IMG/VR virus record: IMGVR_UViG_3300021400_000138
Span: 1 to 64,000 of that record
Source of the DNA: a virus
Taxonomy: Duplodnaviria; Caudoviricetes
Strand: one strand, 5' to 3'
DNA length: 64,000 nucleotides
Of the stretch, positions 27,498-39,917 are shown piece after piece (the first letter of the stretch is position 1; every line of letters starts with the position of its first letter). The position numbers and the translations under genes were made by a program. The notes below the pieces were generated by a model, which was not told where the DNA came from, did not search any database, and saw only the letters and a program-made list of their open reading frames with translations.

Positions 27498-28248
27498 GGA
27501 AGGAGGTGATCATGAGAAAATTTTATGACGTTGATCGAGACGAAACAATAACAATAGAACAGTTAGAAAAAGAATACAATGAGATAAAAGCAATCGGCGG
27601 TACTGATTCAGAAACATTTGATGAATATATTATCAATTGCTTGACATACAACAATGGAACATTAGAAGAAATTAAGGAGATGATTGTATGAATAATATTC
27701 CAAATTGTGTCCCAGAATATTACCGCAGCATGTGGGAAGATGAATGTCATGAGGCAGAAAAGGAAATGGAACGGCTGTCTTGGTATGAAAAGAATAAAGA
27801 ATACCAATACAAACGTTACAATGAAGGCTGTTGGTTGATCAGCTTCTACCCTGATGAGTGTGATAATTGCGCTCATGGAGAAGAAGCGAACCCAACAGCA
27901 GAGTGGGATGATATTCCCACGAAGATTTGTAATGACTGGAGAAACTGTCTGGTATTCAAGAAGTATGTTGCTGAACACTGGCCCAACTGCTCATATGAAG
28001 AAGTTTGCAGTTGGCATGATGAGAAGGGAGGTCACGATGAAACTTAAAGAAGCCATTAAAGCTGTTTCTTATAACGCAAGGCTTCAGATTTTGGTTAAAG
28101 ATGATTACGGCTACAATTTCATGTTTCCGAAATGTGACTTAATCACCCGTGAAACAATCGAGAAATTTTATCCCGAACTTCTTGAAAGGGAACTTAGTGA
28201 TGGGTTTCATGGGGAAGGAATTCGGGAAGGGATTTATGTACATCTGAA

Positions 28249-30315
28249 ATAAAACAATAATTTATATGGAGAATCGCTTATGAAAAAAGAAAATGAAGCA
28301 ATTATGGAAGCTATTGAATTCTTTACCAAAGGCAAATTTAGTGAAAGAAAACCGTTCCTTAAAGAAGCCTACGGTGATAATGGTGCCTTATATAATGGAT
28401 TTAGATTCAACAAAGAAGTGTGGTGCTGGGTTGTATGGAAAGCAACAGATATTGATTCCGCACCACAGTACAAAGGTGAACCTTTGTGTAAGGTAATTCC
28501 TGACACAGTACCGATTGAAAACATACCGAATGTTTTAGAAGCGCAGCCATGGACATATATTTGAGGAGGTGATAGCATGACGGACCAGCAGATTAAGGTA
28601 ATGTTTTCTAAAGAAATCTTGAGATCGTTGAGATTTGGTGATGCATCAGCGGAAATGTGTGTAAGAAGAATCTTGTTTTCAGAGGGAAATGCTATTGATT
28701 GGCAGAGAGCATATGAAGTTGCTCTGGAAGAAATGCCAGAGTTGAAAAATTACAAAGCAGAATAAAACGGTTATTTGAAAGGAGAGCAATAATGAAAACT
28801 CAAAAAGAAATCGAAACAAAAATCAAAGAACTTATGGACGAACTTGATTGGATGTATGATGACTCTTATCCCTATGATTCGTGGGAAGAAGTACCCAAAA
28901 TTGAGTCACAAATTTACATCCTTAATTGGGTGTTAGACAATAAAAGATAGGTTTGATGCCGTGGAACTATTCGAATGTTTTAAGAAGGGAGAGCCAAGAT
29001 GGAAAACATTGAAAACTACTTTGGAATTTGTGTAGCTTACTGGATGTCAACTGGATTAAGCGAGGGCGCTGCAACAGTAAGGGCGGTTTGGTGGGATTGT
29101 GTTGAAGTATGGAACGCAGATAAGTCTTGGACAGAAGATAAAATCGCATTTATTAATCGTTATAGGAAATATAAACCATATGGTCCTGTACCAGAAATGA
29201 AAATGGTTGAAGAGGGAAACGCATAAAAAACAGCTTTTATAGAAGGGAGATTGTGTTATGAAATTATATTGGCCAATGGCGATTATTAAACGTGGTAAAG
29301 AGTGGGATATTCAGCACACATACGATGCCGCAATGTCTTATGAAAAGGCAATGGATGCAATAAAGATATGGAGAGATGAGTATAAATTCGAGATTATTTC
29401 TTTCTGGATTGATGTTACTGATAACGGAAAGAAAATTGAGAGAAGTACTCCGTATGTATATCTTGATCTTGTAAAAGAACTTTGGGCAGATTTTGGAGAT
29501 GTTCCGATGAATCCTGAAACGGAATGTATCGAAGATTTCTGGGGAAGATTTATTCCCGGAACTCACAGAGAAGAGATCTGGCACTGGTTTGAAGAAACAT
29601 TCCACGTTAGCGTTGCGGAAGATTTGATGTAATAAGACCAGCCTTTAATGAAGGGAGAACAATATGGAAAAGTTGATGGTGAGGCACGATGATTACTTTG
29701 TATGGATCGTAGATGACAAGTTTAATCGTATATCTAACTTATACGATTACGATTGTTATTCCGAATGGAGTTACATTCAGGCAAGAGATAAGGCATGGAA
29801 AGAGGTGATGAAATGAACAGAAAAGAATTACTTGAAGAACTGAAGAAATATATGAATCACCTTATTCGTATGGGTGATGAAATGCCATTAGAAGTTTGGC
29901 TTGATGATTACCCTAACAATGTAATTGACATTGAAGATATGGCAGAAATCGGGTATCACTTGCGATATGCTTGCGAATATATAAGCAAGTATGTAGACCG
30001 ATAAAAGACACGTTTGATGAAGGGAGACGATAATATGACAGATATTATTCAGCAATGGAAAAGTGAAGCACTTTGTCTTAGCAGTGTTTATAAAGACACA
30101 ACAGTATTCCATGTAGAGGGAAACACGTTGTATCTGATTACCAGATATCCTGGTTTATTTATTGGTTATCAAGGAAATTTAATTAATAAATACGAAGAAA
30201 AACTTGGCATGAAGGTTAAGATGATTGAGTTGCATGAGGGCATTACACAGTTTTAATAAAAATCAAGTTTCATGAAAGGAAAATAGTCAAATGGATAATA
30301 AAATCCAGTTTTGAT
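28249..30315 (+). repeat. eight ATAARA-N6-TTTNAT-like sites at gene boundaries
   Basis: Copies start at 28249, 28762, 28940, 29223, 29632, 30001, 30256 and 30298. Confidence 0.75.
29258..29632 (+). CDS. hypothetical protein in the cassette-like array
   Basis: C-terminal LWADFGDVPM...GTHREEIWHWFEE domain; bounded by two array sites. Confidence 0.75.
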   Translation: MKLYWPMAIIKRGKEWDIQHTYDAAMSYEKAMDAIKIWRDEYKFEIISFWIDVTDNGKKIERSTPYVYLDLVKELWADFGDVPMNPETECIEDFWGRFIPGTHREEIWHWFEETFHVSVAEDLM

Positions 30316-30748
30316 AAGGAGGTAGATATATGAAAGCAAAAGAATATCTTGAAGAGCTTGAACTATACAATCTTATTCTTAATGAACTGACAGATCCGGA
30401 AAAGATTTCATATGTCAAAGAGAAAATTATTGAAACCAAACGCAAGTACAGAGCAAGACTTAAAGAAGAATGTGCGGATAAATATCTTTATCCGTATAAC
30501 AAGAAAGGTAAAATAGTTGCATGCAGTAGCAATAATGACTGGGAAACCTTCTGGAGAAAAGTCTTCTTTGAAGGAGAGCATTGGGACGAAGAAGATAAGG
30601 AAGCTTTCAGAGATGACAACTGGATAGAGATAAATAGCCCATATGACTGCACAGGAAAAACATTTACCTGGGCTATTGATTCTTTTAATGTTCCGAATGG
30701 TGTTGTTGCTTATATTCGTTATGCAATTGATGTTTAAAGGGAATTGTA

Positions 30749-31540
30749 ATGGAAGATAATAAGAGTGGTCGCTTTAGAAAAAAGAAAGTAAACTTCTCGA
30801 TGATATCTAACACAATCATTCGAGATGAAAGCATTTCACTCAGAGCAAAAGGATTGTATACATTAATACAGTCTTACATAACAATGGAAACATTTACATT
30901 ATATAAGAGTTACCTTATGAGTCAGTGCTGCGAGGGAGAAAGAGCTTTTGATTCTGCCTGGAAAGAATTAAAAGAAAAGGGATATCTTAAACAGTACAAA
31001 ATGAGAGATGGTGCAAGAACATTCTACTATGAATATGAACTTCTTGATGAACCAGAAACAGAAAGTCAAGAGGTACATTCTCTAGAGGTACAAAATGTAG
31101 GTCTACAAAATGAAGACATACAAAGTGTACCACCTACAAAACGTAGCTGTATTAATAATATTATATATAATAATACTATATCCAATAATACTATATCAAA
31201 TCATATCATATCAATCGAGGAGGTGAAAGATCAGATAGGATATGATGCATTCCGCAGGACAGAACAGGATCAAGTAAGTGAAATTGCTATGTTGATCACT
31301 GAGGTTATGAATACGGCAGATAACAAACAGATACGGATTGCTAAAGATAACATCTCCGCAGCGATTGTAAAGGAACGGTTTAGAAAACTTGATAAGTTTC
31401 ACATTGAATATGTTCTGGAATGTTTAAAACAAAACAGTTCCAAGATATCTAGTGTAAAGAATTATTTGTTGACGGCATTATATAATGCTCCGCTGACAAT
31501 GAATAGTTATTATGAGAATAGAGTAAATGTAGGAAGGTAG
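30749..31540 (+). CDS. replication-initiator-like protein (N-terminal HTH, C-terminal DUF6017-like)
   Basis: FSMISNTIIRDESISLRAKGLY...AWKELKEKGYL; IEYVLECL...NYLLTALYNAP; internal 15-bp repeats. Confidence 0.7.
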   Translation: MEDNKSGRFRKKKVNFSMISNTIIRDESISLRAKGLYTLIQSYITMETFTLYKSYLMSQCCEGERAFDSAWKELKEKGYLKQYKMRDGARTFYYEYELLDEPETESQEVHSLEVQNVGLQNEDIQSVPPTKRSCINNIIYNNTISNNTISNHIISIEEVKDQIGYDAFRRTEQDQVSEIAMLITEVMNTADNKQIRIAKDNISAAIVKERFRKLDKFHIEYVLECLKQNSSKISSVKNYLLTALYNAPLTMNSYYENRVNVGR

Positions 31541-31966
31541 ATGTAATGAATATTATTGATAAGATTATTAAAGACATTGATGATAAACTTCTCTTCGGCG
31601 AAGAAAAGAAACTTGAATACAGATTTCCAAACAAGCATATGATTGAAATCATTCTTCGTAGAAATGATTTGGAATTCTATTATGTTCCGACAGAAGAAAT
31701 CAGAGGCAAACTTACTCTGGCGAAATTCATCAACAAGAATAAAATTACTAACAAGAAGATAAAAGAGATCATAACTGAATATACAAAGTATGTGCTGACA
31801 GCACAAATGAAAGATGAAAGATGGGTTAACAACAATACAGAAAATGGAAGGATAAAAAAGAAATATCTTGGATTCGATGCAGGATCTAAAGCAGAAGAAG
31901 TTCTGAAGTGGATTAAGGAAGCATATATGGCAGCGTGATGAAAATTGAATATGGAACTGGGAAATG

Positions 31967-31996
31967 AGGATCTGGTGTAAAAGCCAGGTCCTTTTT
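31967..31996 (+). terminator. intrinsic terminator
   Basis: AGGATCTGG-TGTAAAAG-CCAGGTCCT and a T tract. Confidence 0.7.
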
Positions 31997-32037
31997 GATT
32001 GCAAAAAATTTCATATAAAGAAAGGTTGGTCGATTAC

Positions 32038-32751
32038 ATGGCATACAAAAAAGAAACAATCGTAAGCATCACAAAGAAGGCAGCTGAACTTACAAAGATT
32101 TACAGAAACAAAAAGTCTAGTGAAATCAACATCTGCATTTCCAAAGGAAACAAAAAGATCGGTCGTGTACTTAATGTTTCTCTGATGCCGATTATGACTT
32201 GCGGAAATTGCAAACACTGCCAGGGTATTTGCTATGACATCAAGGCTTGTGTCCAGTACAAGAATGTTCTGGATGCAAGAGTTCGCAATACGGTTCTTGT
32301 TAAAGATCATAGAGATATCTATTTCAACAAGATTAAAGAAGCCTGCAAGAGAAGAAAAACAAACAAATTCTTCCGCTGGCATGTGGCTGGCGATATTCTT
32401 GACTACGATTACTTCTGCCAGATGGTTGATATAGCAAGAGAATTTCCGGAGTTCATCTTCTGGACATACACAAAGATGTATTACATCGTTAATGAATGGT
32501 GCGACAAAAACGGAAGAGAAAATCTTCCGAAGAATCTTTCGATTATGTACTCCGAGTGGAAGACGGTTGATGAAAATGGAAATTACGTTGTTGTTCCGTT
32601 TGATAATCCTTATAACTTCCCTGTATTTGCAGTTCGCTTCAAGGGAGAAGATGCCCCGAAAATGCATCGTTGCCCTGGTAACTGTGATATCTGTAAAGAA
32701 ACAAAACATGGTTGCCCGTTTGGAGAAAGCAGTTATGCAGATGAACATTAA
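32038..32751 (+). CDS. GP88-family (radical-SAM-related, Cys-rich) phage protein
   Basis: SKGNKKIG, TCGNCKHCQGICY, FFRWHVAGDI, FWTYTK, CPGNCDIC. Confidence 0.7.
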   Translation: MAYKKETIVSITKKAAELTKIYRNKKSSEINICISKGNKKIGRVLNVSLMPIMTCGNCKHCQGICYDIKACVQYKNVLDARVRNTVLVKDHRDIYFNKIKEACKRRKTNKFFRWHVAGDILDYDYFCQMVDIAREFPEFIFWTYTKMYYIVNEWCDKNGRENLPKNLSIMYSEWKTVDENGNYVVVPFDNPYNFPVFAVRFKGEDAPKMHRCPGNCDICKETKHGCPFGESSYADEH

Positions 32752-32795
32752 ATATGAATAATAAAAAGTAGTTGACAAAAGAAAGGAGATATGAT

Positions 32796-33317
32796 ATGAA
32801 TAAAGTAGGCTACAAGTTATTTGAAATGAATACAAATGGTGATCTCTTTCCTCTCTTTATTGACAAAAACACTCCAATTCCTAAAAACAAATGGATTCCC
32901 GCTGAATATCATCCAACTAAAGGATTTGCACCAAGAGGTGGTTGGCACATTGGTGCAGATGTTCCTGATGCTCCCTGGTTAAAAGCTTATAACGGAACAG
33001 ATACTGGTTACTACAAACCGAGATGGAAACACGGTCAGCGTGTTTGGTGTGTAGTTGAGTACAATGCAAACCATGATTATAATATGGAAGTTTCTCAGTT
33101 AACAAAGAAATGTTTCACGGATCGGGTTCCGGAAGATGGATATTATTTCTTTAGAGAAGTTGGTAAAGGAACTTGGGTAATAACTTCTGATATTAAGATA
33201 CTGAAAGTTCTTACCGAGGAAGAAAGGCAGCATATTATAAAGGAAGCGAAATACGATGAAGCCGCAGCGTATAGTAAATATAAGGAGGCGTTTGAAAAAA
33301 GAGGAGTGGTTGCTTGA
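32796..33317 (+). CDS. conserved phage hypothetical protein
   Basis: GYKLFE...LFPLFI...KGFAPRGGWH; AAGGAG RBS. Confidence 0.7.
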   Translation: MNKVGYKLFEMNTNGDLFPLFIDKNTPIPKNKWIPAEYHPTKGFAPRGGWHIGADVPDAPWLKAYNGTDTGYYKPRWKHGQRVWCVVEYNANHDYNMEVSQLTKKCFTDRVPEDGYYFFREVGKGTWVITSDIKILKVLTEEERQHIIKEAKYDEAAAYSKYKEAFEKRGVVA

Positions 33318-33375
33318 AAAGAACATAATTGCTGTTGATGATAACGATAAACAAGAATAATAAAGAAAAGGAGAT

Positions 33376-34371
33376 ATGAATATGGCAGCAAATGTAGAAT
33401 GGATGTTCAGTGGCAGCAATGAAACCCCGTGGCACGGAATCGGTGAGGTTATAAAGGGAACCCTTTCTTCTGAAGAAGCAATCAAAGTAGCAAAACTTGA
33501 TTGGGATGTTATTCCTAAGCCGTTATTTGATGAAAAGCATAGAGAGATTCCAGGCTTCAAGGTAAATGTAAGAAGTTCTGATGATAAGATCCTTGGTGTT
33601 GTTACTGATAGATATAAAATCGTACAGAATGATGAAGCATTTGCTTTTACGGATTCTCTTCTTGGCAAGGGTGTTCAGTATGAATCAGCTGGTTCTCTTG
33701 CATCTGGAAAAAGAATTTGGATGCTGGCTCGTATGGAAAACACAACTCTTGCAGAAGAGAAAATTGATCCTTATCTGGTATTTACTAATTCTCATGATGG
33801 AACTGGTGCAATAAGAGTTGCTATTACTCCTGTACGTGTCGTTTGTCAGAACACGTTAAATCTTGCTCTTCATCAGGCATCTCGTCACTGGTCCTGTGTA
33901 CACACTGGTGATATTCAGGGCAAACTTGAAGAAGCCAGATATACATTATCTAATGCAGAAAGATATATGGAAGCATTAGAAGAAGAGTTCGGTGAACTTA
34001 AGCTGAAGAAAGTTACCGAAAAAGAAGTTAGAGATCTTACTGATAAGCTTTTGGAAATGGAGTTTGAAGATCTCGTAAAGAGAGCAAACGTTGACAAGAA
34101 AGTTGTTGACTTCAAAGACATCTTGAAGTCGCACAAAGCAGAAGAGAAACTCGATCAGAAAAGAACGGAGATCTTGAATATCTACTTTGATAAACCTGAT
34201 CTTCGTGGCACAGAACACACAGCATTTAGATTTGTTAATGCAATTAGTGATTATTGTACTCACACAACGGATCACAAAAACACTAGAAACTATCAGGAAA
34301 ACCTCTTCATGAAGGTTGTTGATGGACATAGCATGATCGATAACGCTTATAAGTTAGTTAAATCCGCTTAA
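33376..34371 (+). CDS. DUF932/DUF945 family protein
   Basis: ETPWHGIG, LGVVTDRYKIVQN, NSHDG, TPVRVVCQNTL. Confidence 0.85.
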   Translation: MNMAANVEWMFSGSNETPWHGIGEVIKGTLSSEEAIKVAKLDWDVIPKPLFDEKHREIPGFKVNVRSSDDKILGVVTDRYKIVQNDEAFAFTDSLLGKGVQYESAGSLASGKRIWMLARMENTTLAEEKIDPYLVFTNSHDGTGAIRVAITPVRVVCQNTLNLALHQASRHWSCVHTGDIQGKLEEARYTLSNAERYMEALEEEFGELKLKKVTEKEVRDLTDKLLEMEFEDLVKRANVDKKVVDFKDILKSHKAEEKLDQKRTEILNIYFDKPDLRGTEHTAFRFVNAISDYCTHTTDHKNTRNYQENLFMKVVDGHSMIDNAYKLVKSA

Positions 34372-34470
34372 ACAACTAAATACAATTGAATAACATGCGA
34401 AGAGGGAATTCACAGCGAGTTTCCTCTTTGATTTCTCTAAAAGATTCTAAAAAAGAAAAGGAGATAAGAT

Positions 34471-35463
34471 ATGCTGAATAAGGCAAACATTACATGGAGC
34501 GCAAAACAGGTTTACAAGATGTGGTTAAACAACCTTTTTAGATTTGATAACATTATCCAAAGATCTTATATATGGGAACAGATAAGAAAATCTGAACTTA
34601 TTCATTCTATGCTGGAAGGTTATCCGATCCCGCCGTTTTACGCAAGAAAAGTTGACGGCAAGATTTATGACTTCCTGGATGGAAAGCAGAGAATGAATGC
34701 AATTACTGGATATATTAATGATGTATACGAACTCAAAGGAATTGATCTGGTTGAGTTTGAAGATAAAATAATTGATGTAAACGGAAAGAAGTTTTCTGAA
34801 CTTCCGGAAGATCTTCAGGACAGAATCAAAGATTATTCTTTGACAATTTATTACTACGAAGCAATCACGCCAGAGCAGGTAAGAACAATGTTCCGCAAAC
34901 TGAACAATGGAAAGCCGCTGTCGGCGAAGGAACGTAATATTGCAAATTGTGTTGATATCATTCGGGTATCAGATATTGGTAATCACGAACTCTTCCAGAA
35001 AATTCTTACAGAAAAGGGAAGAGATTCAAGGAAACAGTTGCCGATTGTTATGAAGATCTGGACCATGCTGAATGAAGAAGTTGATACAATCTCATTTGAC
35101 AGCAAGACATTTAATGAGATCATGCAGCAGACAAGAATTGCCGATGACGAAAAGGAAAGGATTGTTACGATTCTGGATAAGATCCTTGCAGTTTATAATC
35201 TTCTTGAAGAAGAAAAGAGAACCGAACGGAAGAAGATGGTTAATGAAACTCATCTGGTTTCGCTCATTCCATTTTTCGAGAAGGCTGTTGATGATGGTAT
35301 TGAAGATAAACTGATGGCAGACTTTATTGTGAAACTGTTCTGTGAAAGAGTTGTTTCTGAGGAATACGAAAAGGCTTGCCACGGCGGAGTTGCCAGAAAC
35401 GCAAACGTAGTTAAACGAAATGAAGAAATTCAGAAGGTTTGGAATGATTTCTTTGAACTTTAA
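34471..35463 (+). CDS. DUF262 (GmrS/ParB-like) domain protein
   Basis: IQRSYIW, LIHSMLEGYPIP, LDGKQR, FRKLNNGKPL. Confidence 0.85.
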   Translation: MLNKANITWSAKQVYKMWLNNLFRFDNIIQRSYIWEQIRKSELIHSMLEGYPIPPFYARKVDGKIYDFLDGKQRMNAITGYINDVYELKGIDLVEFEDKIIDVNGKKFSELPEDLQDRIKDYSLTIYYYEAITPEQVRTMFRKLNNGKPLSAKERNIANCVDIIRVSDIGNHELFQKILTEKGRDSRKQLPIVMKIWTMLNEEVDTISFDSKTFNEIMQQTRIADDEKERIVTILDKILAVYNLLEEEKRTERKKMVNETHLVSLIPFFEKAVDDGIEDKLMADFIVKLFCERVVSEEYEKACHGGVARNANVVKRNEEIQKVWNDFFEL

Positions 35464-36750: not shown

Positions 36751-37722
36751 ATGAAAGGCAGAGAAGAGAATAAGATCAAGATTGATAACCAGATCAAAGA
36801 AAAACTTATGGATCAGCCAAGAGTGCTGTATGAATATTTTGCATATTTGTCTAATAACGGAAGAGATTCCGCACCAACCAGAAGAGTATTTATTTATGGA
36901 ATCATTAGATTTTGCAACTGGTTAAAAGAAAACGGATACAATGTTAGTATCACTAGTGGATGGAAGAGAATTACTCCTGGCGTCATTAATACATATCTTC
37001 TTGAAATTGGGGCAAACGTAAAGCAGAAGACAAAGGCTAGTTATTATGAACATATTAAACTTTTCTTTGAATTTCTGTATAGTATGGATTATATTGAAGT
37101 TAATCCATTTGATGGAAACAAGATTCCGAAACAGAAATATAGTGAAGAAAATCATATTGAATATTTGACAGAAGAAGAGATTGTTGCAGTTAAAGAACAC
37201 ATTAGAGAAAACGAAGGAATTAATTCTCTTTTGTTTGAAACAATATTTACACTTGCATATAAGACTGGTATTCGTATTACAGCATTGACAGAAATCAATA
37301 TTGATGATATAAATATAAGTAATAATAGCATTGAAGTTACTGATAAGGAAAACTATACACGAGATGTATTTATTGGAAGCAGCACAGCAGAATTATTAAA
37401 GAAATATTTAAGATTTAGAGAAAGCCTTCCAACAGAAAGTAATGCATTATTTGTTATTAAAGATTGGGGACCGAAAGGATATGTAAGGATTCCATATAAA
37501 AGAGTTCACAGAATGATTCTTAGAAATACGGAATTCACAGGGAAACATATTACACCACATAAACTTCGTGATACTTGCGCAATGCTTGTATATGAGGAAA
37601 CTCATGACATTTATCTCACTGGGGAAGTCTTGGGCCATAAAAACTTCGAGAATACAAAAAAGTATGCTAAGGTAACGGAAAAGCGTAGAAGAGAAGCGGC
37701 GGATTTCCTTGATAAAATTTAA
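36751..37722 (+). CDS. tyrosine recombinase, catalytic motifs intact (YopP/SroD-like position)
   Basis: TGIR, K, HKLR, LGH, TKKY. Confidence 0.9.
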   Translation: MKGREENKIKIDNQIKEKLMDQPRVLYEYFAYLSNNGRDSAPTRRVFIYGIIRFCNWLKENGYNVSITSGWKRITPGVINTYLLEIGANVKQKTKASYYEHIKLFFEFLYSMDYIEVNPFDGNKIPKQKYSEENHIEYLTEEEIVAVKEHIRENEGINSLLFETIFTLAYKTGIRITALTEINIDDINISNNSIEVTDKENYTRDVFIGSSTAELLKKYLRFRESLPTESNALFVIKDWGPKGYVRIPYKRVHRMILRNTEFTGKHITPHKLRDTCAMLVYEETHDIYLTGEVLGHKNFENTKKYAKVTEKRRREAADFLDKI

Positions 37723-37735
37723 AGGAGCGTAAAGT

Positions 37736-38992
37736 ATGCTAAAAACAAGAGACGAGCTGGACAAACATTTTGAAAGTGTAATTGTAAAGTACGCAGATGA
37801 TCCAAAGATCATGAGACGGATTGCGGATTATTGCTACGAAAATTTTGATCTTCCAAGAGCAAGAACAATGACAATTCTTGGTCTGAATGTTAGTATTCGT
37901 GAATGCAGCGAAAGCGAAATCTTTTGGATTCTTGTAGCCATGAATAATTATTCCGAGAGATGGAACCTAAAGATCTCTCAGTTCTTTACAGATACAGAAA
38001 TCAATGTCTATATGAAATCCAAAAATAATAACAACCCAATAGAATTTCCACTGAGATTTCCGATGATTCAAATAGCCGATGACCAGTGGATTGGGAAGAT
38101 AACGGCTAAGGAGCTTATTCGCCTCAGAAGGGCGGACATGATCACATATAACAAAAGCGCCCAACGTCGCGCCAAGACGATTGTACGGGGCGATAAGGAG
38201 TTTACAAGGCTAAATGTGATGGTCGGTGTCGTAAATAAAATTGCAGATTTATTAGTCAAACACAGATTTATATCAAACGCTATAACGTTAAATATACCTG
38301 ACGGAATGGCAGATTTCTTTTACGACAGTAAAAATAAAGAGTTGGTTATTAATAGCCTAAGATCATTTGATATCATAGATGGTTTTCACAGGTATGTTGC
38401 TATGTGTAATGTCGCCGATGAAAATATTGATTTTGATTATCCAATGGAACTTAGGCTTGTTGCTTTTTCAGAAGAGAAAGCTAATAACTTTATTTGGCAA
38501 GAAGAACAGAAGACAAGGATGCCAGTAATTGATGCCAAGTCATATAACATGAATGATCTGGCTAATAAGATTGCAAACAGAATTGCGGAATCGAGTATTT
38601 GCGCCTTAAGCGAAATCATTGATAGGAATGGACGAATACCTATTGGTCACCTGGCGTATGCAATTGATGGAATTTATCTTAAAAATATGCCAGAGGAAAA
38701 AAAGAAAACGGCTATTGTGGATGTTACTAAAGATATTATAGAAGATTTTAATATCTTAACTGACCATGATAGTAGCTTGTTGACAATGAATTGGAAAGTG
38801 TCTGATATTTATATTTGCATTAACGTATTCTTCTTAATGAGAAACAAGGACAAAAGAAAACTCTATGATAACTATGTGCTGGTAAGAGATTCAATAAAGG
38901 AAAATCCGATTGAAAAGAAATTTATGCTAAGTAATACCATTAAAAAGCAGATGCAAATAGTTGAGGCAATAATGGAGGATGAAGATGTATAA
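37736..38992 (+). CDS. DGQHR/DndB-ParB superfamily protein (YopQ/SroE-like)
   Basis: AQR, ITLN, IIDGFHR motifs; sits between two integrase-fold genes. Confidence 0.75.
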   Translation: MLKTRDELDKHFESVIVKYADDPKIMRRIADYCYENFDLPRARTMTILGLNVSIRECSESEIFWILVAMNNYSERWNLKISQFFTDTEINVYMKSKNNNNPIEFPLRFPMIQIADDQWIGKITAKELIRLRRADMITYNKSAQRRAKTIVRGDKEFTRLNVMVGVVNKIADLLVKHRFISNAITLNIPDGMADFFYDSKNKELVINSLRSFDIIDGFHRYVAMCNVADENIDFDYPMELRLVAFSEEKANNFIWQEEQKTRMPVIDAKSYNMNDLANKIANRIAESSICALSEIIDRNGRIPIGHLAYAIDGIYLKNMPEEKKKTAIVDVTKDIIEDFNILTDHDSSLLTMNWKVSDIYICINVFFLMRNKDKRKLYDNYVLVRDSIKENPIEKKFMLSNTIKKQMQIVEAIMEDEDV

Positions 38993-39917
38993 TGAAAAGC
39001 AAAAGCTAAGGTATTTAAAAGATTGCGAGGGAGTATATGATGAGAGTACCATAAGAAATATTGTCAGCAAATTTAATGTTTGTGAATGGATAGAGATAGA
39101 AAGAGGGAAAGATATTTCTCTGTTTACAAAGTATGAAATTGACGATTATCTTTATACAGTAGGAATGAAGAGTTCTCCGGGATCTTTAGCAAGTATTGTT
39201 TCTTATTATTCTAAATATGTAGAGTGGTGTATTAACAATTCTTTGGTTCCAAGTGGAATTAATCATTTTGATGAAATTGTTGGTGAAAAGAAATTTGATA
39301 AGTATTTAAACAGAAGATTAACAAAGCGAAAATATATTACTCAAGGAGAATTTGATGATGTTTTAAATCGTATTCACAATCCCAGAGATCAATTTGTTTT
39401 ATGCTGCTTATATGAATTTGGAATTTCTCCAAACCAAGTGGAGATTATGAATATTCATTTTAGTGATTTTGATCTTAAAAACAATACAGTAAAATTGATT
39501 TCCGGAAGAGAACCGAAAGTATCACAAAAATTAATCCATTATGCAGAACTTGCAGATCAAGAACTTGAATATACAGTAGAAGTATATGATGGATCCTTTA
39601 GGAAATATAAACTTCTTGATAATGGTTTGGTATATAAAGATGTTGACTGGGGACCAATCAAGCCGAGTCCAAATGCTTCTCAGAGAATCTTCAAACTTCT
39701 ACGCCAAGTAAAGAAATCAACTGGATTGGATGATGCCGTCACAGCCAATAGTCTTTCTGATGCTGGATTTTTTATGTTTGTCGAATCAGAAGCAGAAAAA
39801 ATTGGAATAGATCCAATAGATTTCATAAAGGAAAATGAAGAGCTACTTATTAATCAGTATAACAAGAATACCGTAAGGGCATTAGTAATTTATAAAAAGG
39901 TAAAAGACCTGTTTTAA
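38979..39917 (+). CDS. degenerate tyrosine-recombinase-fold protein (YopR/MrpR/SroF-like repressor)
   Basis: MYNEKQK start and NPRDQFVLCCLYEFG; catalytic R, HxxR and H not recognisable. Confidence 0.65.
   Translation: MKMYNEKQKLRYLKDCEGVYDESTIRNIVSKFNVCEWIEIERGKDISLFTKYEIDDYLYTVGMKSSPGSLASIVSYYSKYVEWCINNSLVPSGINHFDEIVGEKKFDKYLNRRLTKRKYITQGEFDDVLNRIHNPRDQFVLCCLYEFGISPNQVEIMNIHFSDFDLKNNTVKLISGREPKVSQKLIHYAELADQELEYTVEVYDGSFRKYKLLDNGLVYKDVDWGPIKPSPNASQRIFKLLRQVKKSTGLDDAVTANSLSDAGFFMFVESEAEKIGIDPIDFIKENEELLINQYNKNTVRALVIYKKVKDLF

Follow-up and report, generated by a model that had tools for sequence, protein, structure and literature searches.

How single genes can be swapped cleanly in large phages is an old open question, commonly answered by supposing that illegitimate recombination occurs at random and selection acts on its products. 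The question is raised again by a locus of an uncultured SPbeta-like gut phage (Duplodnaviria; Caudoviricetes; IMG/VR record IMGVR_UViG_3300021400_000138), whose genome is complete, 185,390 bp in length and has terminal repeats; its first 64,000 nucleotides were analysed here and are called the window. At about 28 to 31 kb of the window lies an array of small genes, and eight sites approximating ATAAAA-N6-TTTNAT, two inverted arms around a six-base centre, are found at its gene junctions. On balance, we consider it probable that these sites are built-in crossover joints, belonging to a junction-palindrome family of SPbeta-like phages, at which related genomes exchange the genes in between. The eight sites are as follows.

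28249..28266, + strand: J1, ATAAAA-CAATAA-TTTATA; the TAA of its left arm is the stop of gene 28037-28252
28762..28779, + strand: J2, ATAAAA-CGGTTA-TTTGAA; TAA is the stop of gene 28577-28765
28940..28957, + strand: J3, ATAAAA-GATAGG-TTTGAT; the stop TAG of gene 28792-28950 lies within the six-base centre
29223..29240, + strand: J4, ATAAAA-AACAGC-TTTTAT, a perfect palindrome; TAA is the stop of gene 28999-29226
29632..29649, + strand: J5, ATAAGA-CCAGCC-TTTAAT; immediately 3' of the stop of gene X
30001..30018, + strand: J6, ATAAAA-GACACG-TTTGAT; TAA is the stop of gene 29813-30004
30256..30273, + strand: J7, ATAAAA-ATCAAG-TTTCAT; immediately 3' of the stop of gene 30035-30256
30298..30315, + strand: J8, ATAAAA-TCCAGT-TTTGAT; ends a 7-codon mini-ORF (open reading frame), 30292-30315, and forms with J7 a 42-bp 'empty' unit

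A first-pass annotation of this DNA, made without database searches, had pointed out these eight sites and read them as an integron-like array at 28249-30737, and all eight are present on the plus strand. The motif ATAAAA-N6-TTTNAT occurs seven times in the window, against 0.75 +/- 0.85 expected and a maximum of 3 in 100 dinucleotide-preserving shuffles of the window, so that it stands above its controls; five of the seven matches are on the plus strand between 28940 and 30298. The spacing is equally specific: between 28000 and 30400, TAAAA-Nk-TTT has seven occurrences with k = 6, the remaining values of k in the range 0 to 12 giving 0-2 each, and the strict form is found 11 times on the plus strand of the whole genome with a gap of six, against 0-3 times with other gaps. 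These counts show that the sites are non-random and spacing-specific. The stop codon of the preceding gene is identical with the left-arm TAA at four sites (28249, 28762, 29223 and 30001) and stands directly before it at two (29632 and 30256); J3 has its TAG inside the centre, and J8 closes the mini-ORF. A GGAG-type ribosome-binding site (RBS) begins 0-3 nt past the right arm at seven of the eight, in agreement with the first reading, and elsewhere in this genome the same succession of stop, motif and RBS is met at 69.6, 76.8-78.1 and 84.2-85.3 kb; thus, the array is confirmed where it had been placed, but the motif extends beyond it. In the neighbouring array at 16.7-28.2 kb, the motif is absent from the 40-odd junctions. 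Only A-TAAAA and TTT-N-A-T are conserved in the arms of the window sites, and the right arm often reads TTTGA, which departs from the palindromic TTTYA of the form TRAAA-N6-TTTYA. Nevertheless, the sites fit this class in being 16-base palindromes with a free six-base centre, placed after the stops of accessory genes and keeping the order of their centres in relatives. The nearly empty unit between J7 and J8 noticed by the annotation was also recovered; its mini-ORF has its own RBS and resembles the stump of a deleted cassette, and the J7 centre shifted by one base (TCAAGT) has a single difference from the J8 centre (TCCAGT).

What happens at these sites between genomes can be followed in related phages, which were retrieved from viral and metagenome collections with one gene of the array.

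29258..29632, + strand: gene X, 124 amino acids, a recently transferred cassette, 93-98% identical across phages, whose slot differs by phage

Other routes were less productive: megablast of the window from 20 to 44 kb against phage and plasmid collections gave zero matches, the DUF6017 gene downstream of the array retrieved loci (55% identity) without the site array, and no relatives were found with the 135-amino-acid gene. The 13-nt core of each window site was then searched in all fetched loci (L003, L004 and so on) with one mismatch allowed, and the matches were extended without gaps. The backbones of the relatives are 65-76% identical to the window, whereas the DNA identity across the relatives is 93-96% for gene X and for genes 28577-28765 and 29664-29816; this contrast between backbone and cassette is the signature of recent single-gene transfer. 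The window and its relatives have in common the centres CGGTTA, GATAGG, AACAGC, CCAGCC/[CG]TCGCC, GACACG and ATCAAG. Cognate cores stand at the relatives' gene junctions four times for J2 (identical or with one mismatch; L003, L006, L008 and L065), three times for J3 (L006, L060 and L069), nine times for J4, five times for J6 (identical; L003, L004, L005, L065 and L069) and twice for J7 (L004 and L005). The centre of J5 is identical in L064 and has [CG]TCGCC variants after gene X in L003, L004, L005, L059 and L060, a centre related to that of J1 (CAACGA) is found at the corresponding first slot of L003, L006 and L008, and no cognate of J8 was found among the relatives fetched. Beyond these cores the homology typically reaches 0-2 nt leftward of TAAAA and 3-17 nt rightward of TTT (at J4, 0-1 nt leftward and up to 14 nt, through the RBS, rightward). 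Since homology ends just outside the cores, the conserved unit is the 17-18 bp motif alone, sometimes together with the RBS. The genes on both sides of the cognates of J3, J6 and J7 are unrelated to those in the window, while at J2 L008 alone has a homologous upstream gene and none of the relatives a homologous downstream gene. Among 21 copies with both flanks scorable by blastp, the upstream gene is homologous in two and the downstream gene in two, and flanking genes are unrelated in about 85% of cases around conserved cores; at J4 in L065, the upstream gene is kept according to the DNA extension. With backbones only 65-76% identical, identical 14-mers in up to nine phages are therefore not neutral leftovers.

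Moreover, the order J2<J3<J4<J5<J6<J7 is maintained in L006/L005, L004, L008, L065 and L069. Single units come and go within this order: one gene with one site after gene X is present in L005 and L064 and absent in L003, L004 and L059. Insertions, deletions and replacements between related phages, both between the window and its relatives and between SPbeta and phi3T, end at the repeats, and single genes are gained, lost, replaced and re-slotted with breaks at or beside the sites, as the first-pass annotation had predicted for relatives. Its cassette-exchange reading thus survives in substance, but its integron label does not, there being no IntI, attI or attC. The homology-tolerant mechanism that it had thought necessary for the differing spacers is mostly needless, each centre being conserved between phages; therefore, most exchange would resemble crossing-over between same-numbered sites of two genomes, not shuffling inside one. 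A true integron-like platform, in which one phage captures and reshuffles promoterless cassettes in its own array via unlike sites, is accordingly a very improbable account. It could appeal to the promoterless units of one or two genes, each ending in one site, to the 42-bp near-empty unit, and to a few genes that lie between near-duplicate sites as the insertion of a circle would leave them (GTCGCC/CTCGCC in L005, CCAGCC/CTCGCC in L064 and AACAGC/TGCAGC in L062). However, near-duplicate neighbours did not hold as a general sign of circle insertion: two differences or fewer separate 9 of 120 adjacent pairs and 4.7% of random pairs, and overall the neighbours show no excess of similarity. Conservation of site order between phages is contrary to what free shuffling would leave, no recombinase gene adjoins the array, and the sites, with a length of 16-18 bp, are not folded attC.

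The backbones of the window phage and its relatives are too diverged (65-76%) for whole-genome breakpoint statistics, which were therefore made on SPbeta (NC_001884) and phi3T (KY030782), where 36 and 34 strict copies of the palindrome were found, respectively. The centre is identical in phi3T for 24 of the 36 SPbeta copies, all collinear: eight of the 24 lie within shared DNA, ten exactly at a homology edge, and six form islands of 16-30 identical bases with unrelated DNA around them. Of 52 ends of homology blocks, five are no more than 12 bp away from a site, where chance placement would give 0.34. The 36 SPbeta copies read TYTnnATAAAA-N6-TTTTATnnARA, that is, an 11-6-11 architecture with conserved outer arm positions. 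They are perfect palindromes, they also stand between operons of the opposite strand, and their distance from the RBS varies; these properties are hard to reconcile with a role as RNA-level or translational punctuation (processing or re-initiation) or with mere composition (a TAA stop, an A-rich tail and a T-rich stretch upstream of the RBS). In the window phage the motif always stands between stop and RBS on the coding strand, and its right arm is often TTTGAT and not the palindromic TTTTAT, both of which would suit such an explanation; yet the strict six-base gap and the shuffle statistics exclude composition, most junctions of the phage, including those of the long upstream array, are without the motif, and there is no RNA structure, so that we find this account hardly credible. 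Folding of seven junctions gave z-scores from -1.6 to +1.1, with no stable pairing of the two arms and no hairpin over the motif, and no intrinsic terminator was found at the junctions; an RNA hairpin or terminator is ruled out by these two results. Likewise, sigma-70-like promoters (20 matches against 22.9 expected) do not fall at any junction site, in keeping with the earlier description of one- or two-gene units without an obvious promoter. A phage-specific promoter with TAAAA as a single -10-like element was considered and dropped for want of support, as the sites have no promoter-like pattern; a Pfam scan of the genome found no sigma-factor or multisubunit RNA polymerase domain.

Published laboratory hybrids of SPbeta and phi3Ts offer a further view of the sites in vivo. 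Sixteen unique junctions were listed, 15 in homology and one, after yosA, described as 'non-homologous' (Dragos et al., bioRxiv 10.1101/2020.05.06.055103, Suppl. Table 1). We converted their coordinates to the SPBc2 record as 2,286,460 minus the chromosome position, a calibration supported by one listed end that falls exactly at the yorP start and by the 2,467/2,475-bp block of junctions 4 and 8, which is reproduced; past about 100 kb, the phi3Ts numbering is 550 below that of phi3T. After calibration, the 'non-homologous' junction (N1) lies at SPbeta 116,427 / phi3T 107,932, in the site at SPbeta 116415-116430, which reads TAAAA-TATTCC-TTTTA in both phages, with an identity of only 18 bp. Junction 7, listed with 30 bp of homology, falls on the island at SPbeta 69424-69439 / phi3T 62423, a cognate palindrome. 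This mapping is our reanalysis of the supplementary table and is not claimed by Dragos et al. Crossing-over in vivo thus took place at two of the six islands, which account for two of the 16 unique junctions, and the islands make up well under 1% (our estimate) of the sequence common to SPbeta and phi3T. It must be weighed against a dedicated system that the islands are the only short identities in unrelated DNA: short-homology recombination would use the same islands, and therefore the laboratory junctions are no proof of a site-specific enzyme. An explanation without any dedicated recombinase would hold that the elements are conserved for expression and that short-homology recombination (annealing of the Sak4/RecT type or microhomology joining) uses the sole shared sequence, as at PeSL cassettes, an example of conserved intergenic elements able to bring about modular shuffling and the formation of mini-circles (PMC2839356). 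SPbeta-type phages do encode an annealing protein, YorG, annotated as Sak4-like, some breaks fall in RBS microhomology or in stop/start overlaps where no palindrome is present, and gene X moves among differently addressed slots. On the other side, with no promoter, terminator or RNA hairpin at the sites, no expression role is visible, the exact six-base gap and the palindromic arms indicate recognition by a protein, and N1 was joined over its 18 identical bases, the islands receiving their share of junctions from so small a part of the shared sequence. We therefore regard this explanation as unlikely.

The inner arms TAAAA and TTT(N)A are common to the copies, and the six-base centre differs at each. 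If the sites are crossover joints, a cell that harbours two related phages, or an infecting phage together with a prophage, would see DNA exchanged at the copy with the same centre; whatever lies from one joint to the next (one or two genes, RBS included) would be replaced, lost or gained, while the joints keep their place and order. The catalyst might be a phage Xer-type tyrosine recombinase recognising the five innermost bases of each arm and cleaving where arm and six-base centre meet, with the product of gene 36751 and the Phage_integrase genes at about 100 kb and 157 kb as candidates; unusually efficient short-homology recombination would be an alternative route. More tentatively, and with clearly less confidence than in the joints themselves, it can be imagined that this is a natural 'numbered-site' cassette exchange, in which one Xer-like recombinase, of the YopP/SroD or the YomM type, would serve dozens of sites with shared arms and a private overlap, so that genes are swapped slot by slot without scrambling their order. 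Genes 36751-39917 make up an SPbeta-type sro triad, encoding a tyrosine recombinase, a YopQ/SroE-like protein and an MrpR/YopR-like protein.

36751..37722, + strand: Xer-like tyrosine recombinase in the YopP/SroD position of the sro operon (Pfam Phage_integrase, 5.5e-22); candidate site enzyme
37736..38992, + strand: YopQ/SroE-like protein with a DGFHR motif (28% identity over 243 amino acids to SPbeta YopQ, E 9e-16); rival candidate binder
38985..39917, + strand: MrpR/YopR/SroF-like master repressor with a recombinase fold (Pfam MrpR_N_CB, 3.6e-15; YopR/MrpR matches in PDB; 25% identity to SPbeta YopR)

The first-pass annotation had noticed an intact tyrosine recombinase at 36751, and indeed the catalytic Arg, His-x-x-Arg, His and Tyr of the protein align with those of its nearest solved relatives, which are XerC-like, XerA, XerH and XerD. 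Its view of the site as having tyrosine-recombinase geometry is matched by the Xer-type core (a 6-bp centre, and 11-6-11 in SPbeta), and by this comparison the geometry would fit the core site of an Xer-type recombinase. In XerH, 10-11 bp are covered per arm, only the inner 5 bp are read specifically, and the 6-bp centre is barely contacted (PMC5241119). Three genes of the genome have a Phage_integrase domain, the other two at about 100.0-100.5 kb (plus strand) and 157.3-157.9 kb (minus strand), and SPbeta likewise has YomM besides YopP; no serine recombinase was found in the genome above the Pfam cut-off. The 157-kb gene lies in an apparently TAG-recoded late region and contains one in-frame TAG, which may be compared with SPbeta yomM in the late cluster.

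The same triad supplies a rival, namely that the sites are operators or loading sites for a dimeric protein that silences or organises the early arrays, for example a ParB/DndB-like 'second repressor' such as SroE/YopQ, and that the mosaic edges are a by-product of conserved intergenic DNA. Five-base inverted arms one helical turn apart suit a helix-turn-helix dimer equally well, the sites are spread across early regions, and the YopQ/SroE-like protein is the best conserved of the three sro proteins between this phage and SPbeta, in line with the near-identical arms; moreover, SroE is reported to be necessary for lysogeny (bioRxiv 10.1101/2025.11.27.690993). Nevertheless, an operator read through its arms leaves unexplained why six-base centres are identical across backbones of 65-76% identity, why six SPbeta/phi3T copies survive as islands and why two laboratory recombinants were joined inside sites; besides, the sites follow stop codons, away from promoters, and the 11-bp arms of SPbeta are long for a helix-turn-helix half-site. 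We hold this rival to be rather doubtful. The repressor-operator alternative named by the first-pass annotation thus falls for the master repressor; for another dimeric protein it may hold. An operator of MrpR/SroF is ruled out, since the box of that repressor, SPBRE, is a different, long and non-palindromic sequence and not TAAAA-N6-TTTNA. In SPbeta, MrpR binds SPBRE at ten promoters (PMC10516654), and in phi3T a monomer of the repressor occupies a box of 26 bp that is not palindromic (bioRxiv 10.1101/2025.11.27.690993); the consensus that we derived from the ten ChAP-seq-bound SPbeta promoters is near CAAATACAAAAAATATGTATA. Like the palindrome, SPBRE is a repeated intergenic element of these phages, it is bound by a protein with a recombinase fold, and it adjoins a palindrome copy at PaimR and PyosX; unlike it, SPBRE is a monomer-bound box at about ten promoters, whereas the palindrome is another sequence, with its 36 SPbeta copies mostly after stops. 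In the promoter region ahead of the sro-type operon of the window phage (35717-35803), CAAATATGTAGT stands beside TATAAT and resembles the SPBRE core of SPbeta, AAATATGTATA. This CAAATATGTAGT element may be the operator of the MrpR-like repressor 38985-39917.

Several observations weigh against reading the sites as dedicated joints with strict addresses. Catalysis by a phage tyrosine recombinase is our proposal, drawn from gene content and site shape, and the 36751 protein shares only 22% identity with SPbeta YopP though the arms are the same in both phages. In the window, the outer arm positions are taken up by coding sequence on the left and by the RBS on the right. Compared with other gene junctions of the model pair, the enrichment of block ends at palindromes (10 of 28 palindrome junctions, against 23 of 177 others) is real but moderate, only about two-fold, with p about 0.04. 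The cognate search, which proceeds by core similarity, is partly circular, and an unbiased view is mixed, with several different centres at the junctions after gene X; in L003, J2 and the J1-like site are located behind J6. Furthermore, the addresses are not strict, as gene X follows three different sites and precedes at least three kinds. It lies behind J4 in the window and in L062/63, behind J3 in L060 and behind J2 in L065, while in L004, L006, L059, L064 and L069 it stands behind a 91-amino-acid gene that follows J4, and it is followed by J5-type, J4-like or J6 centres. The insertion or deletion of this 91-amino-acid gene ends in microhomology at the RBS (GGAGAT) without a palindrome, gene 29664-29816 is bordered at its 3' side by an ATGA stop/start overlap, and the 5' border of gene 28577-28765 has no site. 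Some cassette borders are without a site. The fact that gene X occupies several slots and that breaks fall at ribosome-binding sites means that further exchange routes exist: the sites are frequent joints and not the sole route, and exchange between unlike sites also happens. As to gene X itself, its residues from about 64 to 124 form a small domain present in well over a hundred phage contigs, many of them from human-gut metagenomes and many with about 50% GC, where it is a short stand-alone gene; those phages do not have the junction motif.

The genes between the sites are small. The array and its neighbourhood are as follows.

28037..30737, + strand: array of ten small genes of 50-135 amino acids, none assigned to a family
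28037-28252, 28280-28564, 28577-28765, 28792-28950 and 28999-29226, + strand: first five genes of the array
29258-29632 (gene X), 29664-29816, 29813-30004, 30035-30256 and 30330-30737, + strand: remaining five genes of the array

The array is embedded in a long run of small plus-strand genes without family assignment. A Pfam search of its ten genes gave zero matches, and in a PHROG search the sole meaningful match was that of the C-terminal part of gene X to a family of unknown function, beside a marginal match of gene 28792-28950 to a tail-terminator family (E 0.001). Directly 3' of the array, at 30749-35463, lie genes with DUF6017, GP88, DUF932 and GmrSD_N (DUF262) domains, which we take to be families frequent on conjugative elements and in defence contexts. 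Outside the window, in the late genes on the minus strand at 100-185 kb of the genome, TAG appears to be read as a sense codon: open reading frames of at least 300 amino acids total 7,595 amino acids there under the standard code, against 19,290 with TAG as sense, whereas the total of the early plus-strand region hardly shifts (7,934 against 8,022), and many 'gene ends' of the late region are TAG codons without an RBS after them.

In the literature searched, no description of this palindrome was found. New here are the distinction between the palindrome and SPBRE, the 11-6-11 form of the site in SPbeta, the difference in identity that sets cassettes against backbones, the off-address events and the link to two published junctions. 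Many of the swapped accessory genes are probably defence or counter-defence genes, and a conserved cis-site in the genetically tractable SPbeta, coinciding with two unexplained published junctions, makes the old question of single-gene swaps directly experimental. If the proposal is true, core genes of SPbeta-like phages that have no assigned role would also gain a function.

Among published systems, those most like the phage sites are Xer/dif sites, pdif modules and PeSLs. Known from T4-type phages, PeSL cassettes (PMC2839356, PMC4122927) are likewise short conserved intergenic repeats in the accessory regions of a large phage, at which insertions, deletions and replacements end and whose copies recombine mutually; however, a PeSL consists of a sigma-70 promoter and a terminator hairpin and its exchange is driven by homology, whereas the sites described here have no promoter, terminator or hairpin and are palindromes of 16-28 bp with individual centres. 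With integrons the phage array shares, although some of its cassette borders have no site, promoterless units of one or two genes that end in a recombination-type site and the gain and loss of a gene together with its site. It differs in that no IntI lies beside an attI, the nearest recombinase being Xer-related and 6 kb downstream in the sro-type operon, and no distinct attI-like site was found at either end of the array; in addition, attC sites are roughly 60-140 bp in length and folded as single strands, whereas the phage sites are short and without a hairpin. Nearer in geometry are the Xer/dif systems, especially the single-recombinase XerH/difH (PMC5241119), which have two inverted arms and a 6-bp centre, as the 11-6-11 copies of SPbeta have, and the 36751 protein has its nearest solved relatives among the Xer recombinases. 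The differences are that dif is one site at the replication terminus, while here dozens of copies per genome, with their own centres, are placed at phage gene junctions; that no chromosome-dimer role is concerned; and that the outer arms in the window are unconserved. The sites presumably also differ from the dif sequence of B. subtilis. In Acinetobacter plasmids, Mindlin et al. reportedly described in 2019 modules bounded by XerC/XerD pdif sites of alternating orientation, which are thought to be served by host Xer proteins. The phage arrays resemble them in having gene modules that are bounded by Xer-type sites and occur in different contexts in different replicons, but the array copies are near-symmetric, their arms are not separable into two kinds, there is no alternation of XerC-XerD and XerD-XerC sites, and the phages carry recombinases of their own. 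Finally, heterospecific lox and FRT sites have shared arms and differing centres, only like sites pair, and two of them allow a clean cassette swap. They are an engineered device, whereas in the phage sites, where dependence on the centre may not be strict, off-address events occur; if the proposal is true, the palindromes of SPbeta-like phages would be a natural set of orthogonal recombination sites.

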